Assembly (NCBI GenBank): GCA_051748045.1
Contig: JBNJGY010000010.1
Coordinates: 1-50,914 of the forward strand
DNA length: 50,914 nucleotides
Reading direction: 5' to 3'
DNA from: Thermotogota bacterium
GTDB taxonomy: Bacteria; Thermotogota; Thermotogae; Petrotogales; Petrotogaceae
The translations under genes and the position numbers were made by a program. Positions 27,050 to 30,672 of the stretch are shown piece after piece. The first letter of the stretch is position 1; every line of letters starts with the position of its first letter. The notes below the pieces were generated by a model. The model worked only from the letters and a program-made list of their open reading frames with translations, was not told where the DNA came from and searched no databases.

Positions 27050-27075
27050 AAATCGGCTTAGCCGATTTTTATTTT
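27043..27075. terminator. Bidirectional terminator between dacB and pfp
   Basis: AAAATAAAAATCGGC-tta-GCCGATTTTTATTTT. Confidence 0.88.
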
Positions 27076-28291
27076 ATTGATATATCTTTAATTTTAAATA
27101 ATCAGGTACACCATTTTTAAAAGGTGGATAGTATTCCCCATTTATTAGTGGTTTGCAATATTCTAAAAATTTATCAGTAACATACAAACCATCGGTAGTT
27201 ATGAAATCTTTTGGTAAATACTTAGTTTCGTTTGCTATTTTGCTTAGTGGAGCGAGTTTGTATTCTATTTGATAAGGAGAGTTAGAAACTCTTTCAAAAG
27301 AAACCATATATCCACTTATTCCATTTGTTGCAAATTCAACTGCTTTTTCACCAGCGATAATAGCTTCATTTACATCGGTTAGAGAAGACAAATGTCTTCC
27401 ACTTCTTTGTAAATAATCAGGAATAGCTGTATGAACTTTTAATTTTAATTCGTTATGAATTAAATCAGATATTACTTTACCTGCATATCCTAATTGTTTA
27501 TTACCAAAATTATCTTTATATCCAAGATCTGATATGAATTTTCCATCTGGATATTTAATTCCTTCTGAAACTGCAATTGAACAATATCCATCGTCGTTTA
27601 TCGCATCATTTATTTTTGAAAGAAATTTGTCTTTTTTAAATGAAATTTCTGGTAGAAGTATAACATGCGGCCCAAAATTATTGTTTATATTTGCCATTGC
27701 AGTTGAAGCTGCAAGCCAACCGGCATGCCTTCCCATGGTTTCTAAAACGAATACTTTTGTTGAATCTTTTGCCATACTTTTTACATCAATACTTCCTTCT
27801 AAAATTGAAGTAGATAAGTATTTAGCAGCTGAACCAAAACCAGGAGTATGGTCTGTATGCGGAAGATCATTATCCACAGTTTTTGGGATCCCCATTACTT
27901 TTAAGTCATATCCAGTAGATTTGGCGAACTCAGCGATTTTATTTGCAGTATCCATGGAGTCATTTCCACCGTTATAGAAAAAATAACCAATATTATATTT
28001 TTTAAAAATTTCAAATATATTTGTAAGTATTGGATCATTATTACTTTCAATCTTTCTTCTACAAGACCCAAAAGCACTAGAAGGAGTATATTTTAATAAT
28101 TCAATCTCTTTTTCTGGTAAATCTTTCATATTCATTAAATGCTCGTTTATAATTCCATTAATACCATTTATTGATATATACACATTTTCTATATTAGAAG
28201 CCAGAAAAGAACTCCTAATAACCCCATAAGCTGAAGCATTAATAACACTTGTAACTCCGCCAGATTGAGCATAAACTACATTTTTTTTCAT
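27074..28291 (-). CDS. pfp: Phosphofructokinase, predicted PPi-dependent
   Basis: QSGG, GGNDS (Asp variant) and PKTVDND (Lys variant) typical of PPi-PFK; MGRHAGW. Confidence 0.88.
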   Translation of the reverse strand: MKKNVVYAQSGGVTSVINASAYGVIRSSFLASNIENVYISINGINGIINEHLMNMKDLPEKEIELLKYTPSSAFGSCRRKIESNNDPILTNIFEIFKKYNIGYFFYNGGNDSMDTANKIAEFAKSTGYDLKVMGIPKTVDNDLPHTDHTPGFGSAAKYLSTSILEGSIDVKSMAKDSTKVFVLETMGRHAGWLAASTAMANINNNFGPHVILLPEISFKKDKFLSKINDAINDDGYCSIAVSEGIKYPDGKFISDLGYKDNFGNKQLGYAGKVISDLIHNELKLKVHTAIPDYLQRSGRHLSSLTDVNEAIIAGEKAVEFATNGISGYMVSFERVSNSPYQIEYKLAPLSKIANETKYLPKDFITTDGLYVTDKFLEYCKPLINGEYYPPFKNGVPDYLKLKIYQ

Positions 28292-28303
28292 TTAATACCC
28301 TCC

Positions 28304-29092
28304 TTATCTAAGTGCAATATTTTCTTCTTCACTAGATTGAGTTGTATAATTATCTTTGTCAGCTGGAATGACCATTCCAAAACCTTGAGCATTTTTTGCT
28401 CCCAAACCAGAATTTAGAGTTAACTTAATTAATTCTTTATCTCCTTTTAATTTAAAATAACCAGTCCAACCTTTGATTATAATTCCTTTATAGAATAACA
28501 ATTTTTCATTTTTTTCAGTTATACCATAGGGCTCTATAGTAATTGATTTTCCATCAGTACGAATACCTAATGCATTTGCTTTTCTTTTTAAATTATCTTC
28601 GACTAGTTTTTTAAAATCTGTAGAATATGGTGAAAAATAATGAGTATATCTATTCCCATTTGGTAGAACAATAGTTGAATAAGTAGTTATAGGAGACAAT
28701 GTTTTTACTAGTAAAGAATCATCAGAATTCTCTATAACCATTTCAGTCTTTTTTAAAGTAAAATAATTTTTTTCAACTCTGAAAATATCTTCAGATTCAA
28801 TAGATTTAAAAATTGCATCTATAATTTCTTGCATAGGTGATGCAAAATAAACTATAAAAGAACCATTGAATTTCATTCTTTTATGCTCTACTTTGAAAGA
28901 ACTCAAAGGATAAATTCTTGAAAATGTAAAAAGTTTAAGTTTTTTATTGTCAATAATTGTTCCATCATCATGATAATCTGGAATAGCATCTGACATTAGA
29001 TTATAGAACATACCCTGTAAAGGCCTATTATAATGAACTGGTAAATCAACAATTTCATCTTGAACAGGCTTAAATTCCAATTTTAATACCAT
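28304..29092 (-). CDS. cas6: CRISPR-associated endoribonuclease Cas6, stand-alone
   Basis: LPVHYN..LQG..Y, HDDG, KLFTFS, TLSPI, G-rich loop GLGAKNAQGFG. Confidence 0.92.
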   Translation of the reverse strand: MVLKLEFKPVQDEIVDLPVHYNRPLQGMFYNLMSDAIPDYHDDGTIIDNKKLKLFTFSRIYPLSSFKVEHKRMKFNGSFIVYFASPMQEIIDAIFKSIESEDIFRVEKNYFTLKKTEMVIENSDDSLLVKTLSPITTYSTIVLPNGNRYTHYFSPYSTDFKKLVEDNLKRKANALGIRTDGKSITIEPYGITEKNEKLLFYKGIIIKGWTGYFKLKGDKELIKLTLNSGLGAKNAQGFGMVIPADKDNYTTQSSEEENIALR

Positions 29093-29200: not shown

Positions 29201-29223
29201 TAAACCCGGTAATACCGGGTTTA
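29201..29223. terminator. Terminator after the sugar ABC ATPase gene
   Basis: TAAACCCGGT-aat-ACCGGGTTTA with a minus-strand T run. Confidence 0.8.
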
Positions 29224-29240
29224 ATTAAAAATGAAGTTGA

Positions 29241-30353
29241 TTAAAATATTGCTTCTTCTGTTTCTTTATCAAAAGCATGCATAGCATTCATATCAAATAC
29301 TAATTCCATATCTTGCATAGCTTCTGCTTCGGTTCTTGGTGTAACTTTAGCAGTAAATGTTTGGTCTGCTATTTTTGCATGTAATAATGTTTCTGCACCT
29401 AATGGTTCAACTACTTCTATTTTTGTTTTTAATACATTTCCTTCATGAGCAGCCCCTTCTTTTTCTTCATAAAAAGCTTTATCATATATATCCTCAGGTC
29501 TTATACCAAATAAAAGTTCTTTATCTATATAATCTTCAAAATGTTTTTCATATTTTTCTGGTACTTCCAAGTTTATACCTTCATGTTTAAGCCATATTCC
29601 ATTTTCTTTTACAACTTTTACATTCATGAAATTCATAGCAGGAGTTCCTATGAAACCAGCTACAAATACATTTCTTGGTTGATGGTAAACTTCATTTGGA
29701 CTGCCTATTTGTTGTACCCAACCGTCTTTAAGAATAACTATTTTATCTGCCATTGTCATAGCTTCAACTTGGTCATGAGTAACATAAGCTATAGTCGCAT
29801 TTAATCTTAAATGTAATTTTTTAAGCTCAGCCCTCATTTGGACTCTTAGTTTCGCATCCAAATTTGAAAGAGGTTCATCAAATAAGAATACTTTAGGATC
29901 TCTTACAATAGCTCTACCAACAGCAACTCTTTGTCTTTGTCCACCGGATAGTTGCTTAGGTTTATTTTCTAATAAATGTTCAATATCTAAAATCTTAGCG
30001 GCGTTTCTAACTCTTTGATCAATTTCATCTTTTGGCATTTTTCTTAGTTTTAAACCGAAAGCCATATTATCATAAACTGACATATGTGGATATAAAGCGT
30101 AATTTTGGAAAACCATGGCAATATCTCTATCTTTTGGTTCAACATCATTTATAACTTTATCGTCAATTTTAATAGTACCTTTTGAAATATCTTCTAATCC
30201 AGCGATCATTCTTAATGTAGTAGTTTTCCCACAACCAGATGGACCTAATAAAACAACAAACTCTTGGTCTTTAATAGTAAAATCACAGTCTTTTACCGCA
30301 TGAAATCCATTTGGGTAAATTTTATTTACTTTAGATAATAATACGTCTCCCAT
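29241..30353 (-). CDS. Sugar ABC transporter ATP-binding protein (MsmX/MalK/UgpC family)
   Basis: GPSGCGKTT, MVFQNYALYPHM, LSGGQRQR, FDEPLSNLD, FVAGFIG, C-terminal TOBE domain; no permease nearby. Confidence 0.95.
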   Translation of the reverse strand: MGDVLLSKVNKIYPNGFHAVKDCDFTIKDQEFVVLLGPSGCGKTTTLRMIAGLEDISKGTIKIDDKVINDVEPKDRDIAMVFQNYALYPHMSVYDNMAFGLKLRKMPKDEIDQRVRNAAKILDIEHLLENKPKQLSGGQRQRVAVGRAIVRDPKVFLFDEPLSNLDAKLRVQMRAELKKLHLRLNATIAYVTHDQVEAMTMADKIVILKDGWVQQIGSPNEVYHQPRNVFVAGFIGTPAMNFMNVKVVKENGIWLKHEGINLEVPEKYEKHFEDYIDKELLFGIRPEDIYDKAFYEEKEGAAHEGNVLKTKIEVVEPLGAETLLHAKIADQTFTAKVTPRTEAEAMQDMELVFDMNAMHAFDKETEEAIF

Positions 30354-30368
30354 TTTTGCACCTCCGAG

Positions 30369-30623
30369 TTATAAATCAAAATCTTTAAAAAACTTTTTGA
30401 AATTTTTATATTCTTCAATATCATCTATCTCTAATAAAGATAGATCTTTTATTTCATCTATAAACTTTAATATATTATTGTATTTTTCATAATTAACTAA
30501 CATCGCTTCAGGCTTTCCATTTTTAGTAATTATAATATCCGATTTCTTAGAATTTTCAATAACTTCTGAAAACTTTGCTTTTGCTTGAGCAATACTATAA
30601 AAATTAATTTCATCTAAGTTCAT
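30369..30623 (-). CDS. Phd/YefM family antitoxin-like protein, orphan
   Basis: YSIAQAKAKFSEVIE...IIITKNGKPEAMLVNYEKY; acidic C-terminus. Confidence 0.88.
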   Translation of the reverse strand: MNLDEINFYSIAQAKAKFSEVIENSKKSDIIITKNGKPEAMLVNYEKYNNILKFIDEIKDLSLLEIDDIEEYKNFKKFFKDFDL

Positions 30624-30634
30624 ATACCCACCCC

Positions 30635-30672
30635 TTGACTATAATTATAGTCAAAATAATCATTAATGTCAA
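30635..30672 (-). promoter_or_regulatory. Consensus sigma70 promoter with a 20-bp perfect palindromic operator
   Basis: Minus strand TTGACA(30672-30667)-N17-TATAAT(30649-30644); TTGACTATAATTATAGTCAA at 30635..30654. Confidence 0.85.

Follow-up and report, generated by a model that had tools for sequence, protein, structure and literature searches.

A toxin-less Phd/YefM-family protein as putative autorepressor of an MsmX-type sugar-importer ATPase operon in the Thermotogae

A phd-like gene coupled to an MsmX-type ATPase

The window analysed here is a 50,914-nucleotide stretch of a Thermotogota bacterium of the Petrotogaceae (contig JBNJGY010000010.1, assembly GCA_051748045.1). On its minus strand, a small gene of the Phd/YefM antitoxin family is followed, at the place where a toxin gene would normally stand, by a gene for an ATP-binding cassette (ABC) ATPase of the MsmX/MalK type. 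Upstream lies a consensus promoter whose -10 hexamer falls inside a perfect 20-bp palindrome. An original prediction had proposed this arrangement from the letters of the DNA, including the 84-residue Phd protein and the 15-nt gap with its GGAGGTG site; every element was found at its predicted position, on the minus strand (Table 1).

Table 1. Features of the phd-ATPase operon, its neighbours and the other Phd modules of the genome
Feature	Position	Strand	Remarks
-35 hexamer TTGACA	30667..30672	-	12/12 promoter match with 17-nt spacer
-10 hexamer TATAAT	30644..30649	-	inside the palindrome
Perfect 20-bp palindrome TTGACTATAATTATAGTCAA	30635..30654	.	presumed operator of the Phd-like dimer; includes the -10 box
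Conserved 18-bp palindrome core TGACTATAATTATAGTCA	30636-30653		
11-nt leader with ribosome-binding site GGGGTGGG	30624..30634	-	G-rich boxes at the same place in relatives
phd-like gene, 84 aa	30369..30623	-	ATG at 30623; Phd/YefM fold, without toxin partner
15-nt intergenic spacer	30354..30368	-	holds GGAGGTG, the ATPase ribosome-binding site, which nearly all loci share
MsmX/MsmK/MalK-type ATPase gene, 370 aa	29241..30353	-	assigned by domains and NF008653; sole one of its type in the genome
Terminator-like hairpin and T run	29201..29223	-	operon end
Cas6-like gene	28304-29092	-	PF01881 (4.3e-32), TIGR01877; just after the operon terminator
PFK-family (pfp-like) gene	27074-28291	-	12 nt after the Cas6-like gene
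Ordinary YefM-YoeB and Phd-ParE modules (loci L033, L035)	G000 C110:1549-2078 and C100:1984-2590		other contigs of the window genome

The promoter is the sole 12/12 match to TTGACA-N17-TATAAT between positions 28900 and 31100, and the hairpin is the sole terminator-like site in the same interval. The half-sites of the palindrome read TGACTATAA, and a TTGAC(A/T)-like box stands at the same distance in most loci of the same family. No promoter-like or terminator-like site occurs in the 15-nt gap between the two genes. Within phd, the best promoter candidate, a 10/12 match at 30559-30532, does not exceed the shuffle background (20 found against 16.3 expected). Metatranscriptome contigs from four runs in three studies (X2, X3, X4 and X7) cover the ATPase reading frame, one of those from X2 spanning 29239-30350. 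None covers phd; such contigs are assemblies that can break at strain differences, so the uncovered gene says nothing on transcript structure.

The 84-residue protein matches PF02604 (PhdYeFM_antitox) with an E-value of 5.5e-14 (52.1 bits; cut-off 29.8) and TIGR01552 with an E-value of 2.4e-11 (42.8 bits; cut-off 20.8). An AlphaFold2 model built on 44 relatives, with a predicted local distance difference test score (pLDDT) of 84, places strands at residues 6-10, 29-34 and 37-42 and helices at 11-16, 18-25, 45-65 and 69-81. The modelled fold is thus a strand-helix-helix-strand-strand core followed by two C-terminal helices, the architecture of Phd/YefM proteins. By Foldseek against the PDB, all top matches listed were Phd, YefM or RelB2 antitoxins, aligned over about 50 residues at 0.9-2 Å; they include Phd on its operator (4zm0, 4zm2) and YefM-YoeB on 26-bp DNA (6l8e). 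The Foldseek E-values are weak (best 3e-3) because the protein is small. Its closest solved relative is Rv2865 of the Mycobacterium tuberculosis RelBE2 pair Rv2865-Rv2866 (3g5o_A), with a profile E-value of 1.4e-4 and the first rank by fold.

Residues A12, K15, S19, T33, N35, G36 and P38 of the N-terminal domain are invariant and are shared with the operator-linked antitoxins of other phyla described below. In the C-terminal half, F54, D60 and L63 occur in at least 90% of the 44 sequences, with the consensus DLYLLDIGD; the last helix (69-81) is modelled as amphipathic, and the final 15-20 residues vary between families. Proteins of the window's own family end in FFKDFD(L/Y). Outside it, many end in EEV or QEV after an acidic stretch (L027, L036-L044, L048, L049, L051 and L055), which could be a docking or degradation signal. 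Identical proteins carry the public names 'prevent-host-death' or 'Phd/YefM family antitoxin' in Thermotoga, Defluviitoga, Mesotoga and Marinitoga.

The ATPase contains ABC_tran (PF00005, 2.9e-34), OB_MalK (PF17912, 4.5e-13) and TOBE (PF03459, 2.8e-7) domains and scores 503 bits against the UgpC/MsmX-type model NF008653 (cut-off 432). It is the sole full-length ATPase of this type in the genome and is encoded apart from permeases; the nearest paralogue, 47% identical over residues 18-264 only, sits in its own complete transporter locus. The genome holds 37 BPD_transp_1 permease matches and 74 ABC_tran matches. At seven loci (on contigs C4, C8, C13, C18, C35, C42 and C71, that on C42 at the contig edge) an SBP_bac_8 binding protein and two permeases occur with no ABC ATPase within 3.5 kb, and C29 carries a permease pair with neither a binding protein nor an ABC ATPase. 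From this distribution we infer that the ATPase energises several importers that lack an ATPase of their own. MsmX of Bacillus subtilis and MsmK of Streptococcus pneumoniae and Caldicellulosiruptor bescii are likewise stand-alone MalK-type ATPases, shared among CUT1 sugar importers. The passages available to us report that the mal operons of Thermotoga lack an ATP-binding gene, with a Thermotogales-specific MalK homologue proposed to serve them (PMC2246101), and that in Caldicellulosiruptor deletion shows one MsmK to serve many CUT1 importers (PMC8579813).

Conservation of the pair and the palindrome across the class

Of 61 related genomes, 56 contain one homologue of the small protein. A profile made from 30 homologues finds exactly one match (E <=1e-8) in 141 of the 151 genomes of the class; among the 117 genomes with a completeness of 90% or more, the figure is 114. 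At E <=1e-12 there are 153 proteins, and of the 120 listed, all that bear a name come from Thermotogota genera. We inspected 73 loci: the first 30 listed from relatives, 20 more chosen across the class from other families (12 of them from genomes without the exact palindrome core) and 23 on Thermotogota-titled contigs, some of which are from the same genomes as the class set. The ATPase gene lies directly 3' of the phd-like gene in all of them (30/30, 20/20 and 23/23), and a palindrome of the same type lies 5'. In 43 aligned relatives, the gene after phd encodes an ATPase 63-95% identical to that of the window.

Two objections raised beforehand can be addressed with these loci. The first, that relatives carry a toxin gene at this position and the window lost it recently, is contradicted by the neighbour being an ABC ATPase in 73/73 loci, whereas an adjacent toxin gene is typical of a type II module. 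The second was that the ATPase has a promoter of its own. The intergenic distance is -8 to 163 nt in the first 30 loci and 2-43 nt in the 20 loci from other families, the latter range being that of most loci. The longest spacers, 101-163 nt and partly G+C-rich, belong to genus g6 (L011-L015 and L017); that of L011 is free of promoter-like and terminator-like sites and forms no stable fold (z +1.31).

The palindrome core, TGACTATAATT[AG]T[AG]GTCA, stands 11-31 nt before the phd start in 30/30 loci, and a variant palindrome, such as TGACTATAATTCTAGTCA or TGACCAGAATTATGGTCA, 4-28 nt upstream in the 20/20 further ones. The variant at L043, TGACCATAATTATGGTCA, is again a perfect palindrome, its two arms having changed symmetrically. 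The exact core occurs in 105 of the 151 class genomes, with a single site in all but one of them; a control with the reversed pattern gave 0 matches in every one of the 151. In the window's own genome the operator palindrome is present once. A search there for further copies, which the original prediction had suggested, returned only C7:32379-32398, which with three mismatches is at the level of the reversed-pattern control.

Length alone does not make such a site rare, as the genome contains 61 perfect 20-bp palindromes, many of them hairpin-like, against 10-17 in five block shuffles. What lifts this one above chance is its conservation 5' of the same gene pair across the class. The TGAC/GTCA arms, which lie outside the -10 box, are as conserved as the box itself. 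In family f2, the palindrome covers the -35 region and the spacer, and a distinct TATAAT stands further downstream; the site thus persists without serving as the -10 box.

Ten class genomes lack a phd-like match, of which five were inspected. G074 and G094 lack the orthologous ATPase as well (best matches 46% identical); both genes are therefore absent or unassembled together. The ATPase-like genes of G058 are 52% paralogues only. The remaining two make up family f5 and are taken up below.

One palindrome in toxin-antitoxin operons of other phyla

A scan for the exact core, with one genome per species, returned at least 119 stretches, of which 80 with flanking sequence were examined. All 23 Thermotogota-titled contigs among them carry phd and the ATPase. 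Among the other 57, a Phd-family open reading frame (PF02604-type; local profile, E <=1e-3) lies beside the core in 33, whose titles name Actinomycetota, Chloroflexota, Nitrospirota, Spirochaetota, Thermodesulfobacteriota, Planctomycetota, Gemmatimonadota, Myxococcota, Methylomirabilota, Binatota and others. Many of these 33 contigs are 55-69% G+C, a composition in which chance would not be expected to produce an A+T-rich 18-mer. The geometry is that of the window, with TTGAC-type boxes about 17 nt upstream of TATAAT, and the first gene starts at the palindrome or a few bases from it.

In 11 of the 33, the order is palindrome, phd and a second (toxin) gene; in the other 22, a putative toxin gene of 102-120 codons stands between the palindrome and phd. 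Pfam searches on ten pairs matched the small protein to PF02604 in 10/10. Partners encoded after phd matched ParE_toxin in 4/4 ParE-type loci, and one further partner is a PIN protein. The five partners encoded before phd gave one ParE_toxin match above the cut-off, one below it (21.4 bits against 23) and three without a match. These ParE/RelE-linked operons carry the same 18-bp palindrome at the equivalent promoter position but, unlike the Thermotogota operon, keep a toxin gene before or after phd. Their Phd proteins are 30-59% identical to those of Thermotogota, over the N-terminal 40-55 residues only. Phd is the sole protein common to the three gene contexts and, judged from the sequences, is most likely the protein that binds the palindrome.

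Two further features of the cross-phylum sites were seen. In actinobacterial Phd-ParE loci (L056, L065, L082, L097, L100, L104, L109 and L121) the palindrome's last base is also the first base of the start codon (GGTCATG), 8 nt after TATAAT, and the mRNA made from this cassette is probably leaderless; in the Thermotogota version a short leader bearing a ribosome-binding site has been added. In a metagenome-assembled genome (MAG) titled Rhodothermaceae (L064, L110 and L131; G+C 0.64-0.65), the perfect 18-bp palindrome occurs three times, at 1601-1618 of each contig, nested in a longer palindrome with the half-sites TATAGTCA and TGACTATA on both sides and with no Phd gene within 1.6 kb. These copies could be a repeated element or sites for a Phd protein acting in trans.

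To place the small protein among its relatives we built a tree of 79 proteins, which took in both ordinary Phd/YefM genes of the window genome. All 44 Thermotogota sequences fall into a single clade (support 100/99), within which subclades match taxonomic families; the toxin-linked relatives lie outside it. The deep forks are not resolved, and with only 94 columns the tree gives a coarse picture. As no inspected Thermotogota locus has a toxin gene at this position and the subclades follow the families, the ATPase in place of a toxin is ancient. In the simplest history, either the ATPase gene entered the toxin slot or the cassette came to lie ahead of the ATPase, in a single event no later than the root of the class; vertical descent followed, with one loss in f5. 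Rather than a decayed toxin-antitoxin locus, this is a long-established and fixed reuse of an antitoxin together with its presumed operator.

The best-studied members of the family offer a comparison. Phd-Doc of phage P1 and YefM-YoeB belong to the same family (PF02604) and fold and have been solved on palindromic operators in the structures named above. Their layout is like that seen here, with a palindrome over the promoter and a small antitoxin gene tightly coupled to a second gene; their operator sequences probably differ from the Thermotogota palindrome. Unlike in these systems, the second gene here encodes a 370-residue ABC ATPase, and the phd-like gene is a vertically inherited, single-copy core gene of the class.

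Family match, operon layout and an operator as in type II modules would also suit an antitoxin that still works as one, its toxin being encoded elsewhere or the operon forming an addiction or defence module whose harmful partner is ATPase in excess. Downstream of the window genome's two ordinary Phd/YefM genes lie YoeB (1.4e-40) and ParE (3.6e-18) toxins, and neither module has the palindrome. An orphan toxin of the ParE/RelE superfamily, the one group of toxins searched for, was not found in the genome: the only two matches lie beside these other Phd genes, in line with the toxin-less status predicted for the locus. Toxin-antitoxin modules are moreover patchy and mobile, whereas this gene is present once in 141/151 genomes and its tree follows taxonomy. 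The ATPase is an ordinary, highly conserved transporter subunit, which one lineage keeps without the small protein. We consider a working antitoxin very improbable.

Regulation of a shared subunit

We propose, with a probability of roughly three in four, that the small protein is a domesticated Phd/YefM antitoxin that autorepresses the phd-msmX operon through the palindrome, and that the ATPase serves importers lacking one. A dimer of the 84-residue protein would bind the 18-bp core (Table 1) with its N-terminal domains and block the sole promoter of the operon at its -10 box. Because the site overlaps the -10 box of the only promoter, phd and msmX would be repressed together, giving negative autoregulation of both. 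The MsmX-type ATPase would in turn energise several sugar ABC importers without their own ATPase, and the arrangement may provide a steady, self-limiting supply of the shared subunit. The promoter, presumed operator and Phd gene are the same cassette as in the Phd-ParE/RelE operons of other phyla, and its toxin slot would have come to hold the ATPase at or before the root of the Thermotogae. The class-wide pair and the palindrome shared with Phd toxin-antitoxin operons elsewhere uphold the earlier suggestion that an antitoxin had been exapted.

Several observations weigh against this proposal. A long stem, 2.37 changes per column, leads to the Thermotogota clade, so the DNA specificity of the protein could in principle have changed, with the site kept as a promoter. 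A consensus -10 box reads on both strands of the palindrome, and part of the conservation is therefore that of a promoter. No Phd gene lies within 1.6 kb of the core in 24 of the 57 non-Thermotogota contigs, some of them G+C-rich (L064, L110, L131 and L112); the site is thus not exclusive to Phd operons, or Phd acts there in trans. Finally, both genomes of family f5 (G053 and G059) have an orthologous ATPase, 67-68% identical, without the phd-like gene or the palindrome, which makes the regulator dispensable for ATPase function. The f5 ATPase gene directly follows an unrelated gene and has its own promoter-like sequence.

The second and third of these points would also fit a Phd-like protein that no longer binds DNA, the palindrome being a strong symmetric promoter or the site of another factor and the protein acting on the ATPase as a chaperone, inhibitor or assembly factor, a role with which the complex model described below would agree to a limited degree. 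The symmetric change at L043, arms as conserved as the -10 box and a palindrome kept over the -35 region and spacer in f2 argue otherwise, as do the invariant N-terminal residues shared with operator-linked antitoxins and the tie of the site to Phd genes in G+C-rich genomes. A protein without DNA binding therefore appears unlikely to us, and autorepression through the palindrome remains the preferred reading.

In the f5 genomes, a carboxylase-like gene at locus L175 (G053:C204:1-3508) ends about 40 nt upstream of the extended ATPase reading frame; the second locus is L176 (G059:C332:1-2475). At 178 columns that are at least 95% conserved, the f5 ATPase shows seven changes, all conservative, against 0-8 (median 1) in leave-one-out controls, f5 being outside the 44 reference rows.

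Autorepression could be extended by a feedback like that of toxin-antitoxin modules, in which the C-terminal helices of the Phd-like protein also bind the ATPase and free ATPase is a co-repressor or is held inactive. Newly induced transporters would then pull ATPase to the membrane and derepress the operon. The original prediction had raised the ATPase as a possible binding partner. A predicted complex of the two proteins scored 0.60 (runs 0.60, 0.69 and 0.53) against 0.01 for the best of three controls, graded as weak support; the runs agree in at least 95% of contacts, with a partner pLDDT of at least 77. Of 157 solved complexes, 116 reached the score mark, as did 2 of 215 mismatched pairs; these counts hold only roughly here, since the prediction was run on alignments of our own. 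At scores of 0.60 or below, just 18 of the 157 are left, together with both passing mismatches. Unless a pairing was already likely, support of this grade tends more to be wrong than right, and the model gave no interface.

Other features of the pair bear on such binding. The C-terminal half of the small protein is conserved class-wide and its last helix is modelled as amphipathic, the product of the neighbouring gene is the binding partner in the ancestral cassette, and the close coupling of the genes (gaps of 2-19 nt, one overlap) would fit two proteins produced at a constant ratio. An ABC ATPase that holds a transcription factor has a precedent in Escherichia coli, where MalK binds MalT, an activator. 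With transporter activity feeding back on transcription, MalK-MalT is the nearest working analogy; MalT, however, is a large STAND activator of the mal regulon, whereas the protein here has a Phd fold and is a putative autorepressor of the ATPase gene, its binding to the ATPase being weakly supported. Against binding, the last 15-20 residues vary between families although the ATPases are 63-95% identical. The motif E-x-x-D-L-x-L-L-x-x-x-D-P also turns up in toxin-bound relatives and may therefore be kept for structural reasons. In the phd-less lineage, the ATPase gives no clear sign of relaxation. Scoring of 7,999 candidates of 171-2000 residues turned up no Phd-ATPase fusion, which is weak evidence.

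On balance, we regard the feedback extension as possible, at somewhat less than even odds, and direct binding of the Phd-like protein to the ATPase as about equally likely. Slightly less likely is the full circuit, in which the class would run its shared ATPase on a converted toxin-antitoxin switch: the Phd-like dimer would sit on the operator, its C-terminal helices would hold free ATPase, and the ratio of idle ATPase to repressor, not any sugar, would set transcription. Were this so, transporters induced by any substrate would draw ATPase away and so call for more, and control of the conditional-cooperativity type would match a shared subunit to the summed demand of independently regulated importers.

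The literature we covered, which excludes subscription journals and supplements, contains no description of the phd-ATPase pair or its operator. Four 16-mers of the palindrome occur in 0 paper texts, and a paper on the carbohydrate regulons of Thermotoga maritima (PMC3750489) has 0 occurrences of the ATPase or antitoxin terms. For C. bescii, the passages available to us describe MsmK as essential for oligosaccharide use and msmK as highly expressed with only a weak XylR site; unlike for the window operon, no antitoxin-type regulator is described in them (PMC8579813).

If autorepression holds, the operon would be an ancient and clear example in which the control cassette of a toxin-antitoxin module stayed while a housekeeping gene took the place of the toxin, and toxin-antitoxin modules would be a source of ready-made autoregulatory circuits beyond their selfish or defence roles. 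The small protein is also a candidate regulator for how cells set the amount of a shared ATPase, in organisms studied for hydrogen production from carbohydrates. Everywhere, the phd-like genes bear the label 'type II toxin-antitoxin system Phd/YefM family antitoxin', which inflates toxin-antitoxin counts in Thermotogota and hides a putative metabolic regulator. The 18-bp palindrome is in addition a predicted operator for a large antitoxin subfamily across phyla. Three gene contexts with one site form a natural swap set for the specificity of the Phd fold, with f5 as a natural control lineage.

The neighbourhood of the operon includes a solo Cas6-like gene and a pfp-like gene (Table 1). The window contains no clustered regularly interspaced short palindromic repeat (CRISPR) array, and the only other cas gene in the genome is a Cas1 fragment at a contig edge (C69:7000-7125). 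We dropped the Cas6-like gene as a partner of the phd-like protein, since its synteny is limited to the taxonomic family of the window whereas the C-terminus of the phd-like protein is conserved class-wide. Within that family, a Cas6-like gene, 58-96% identical, lies downstream of the ATPase gene in 8 of 10 genera.

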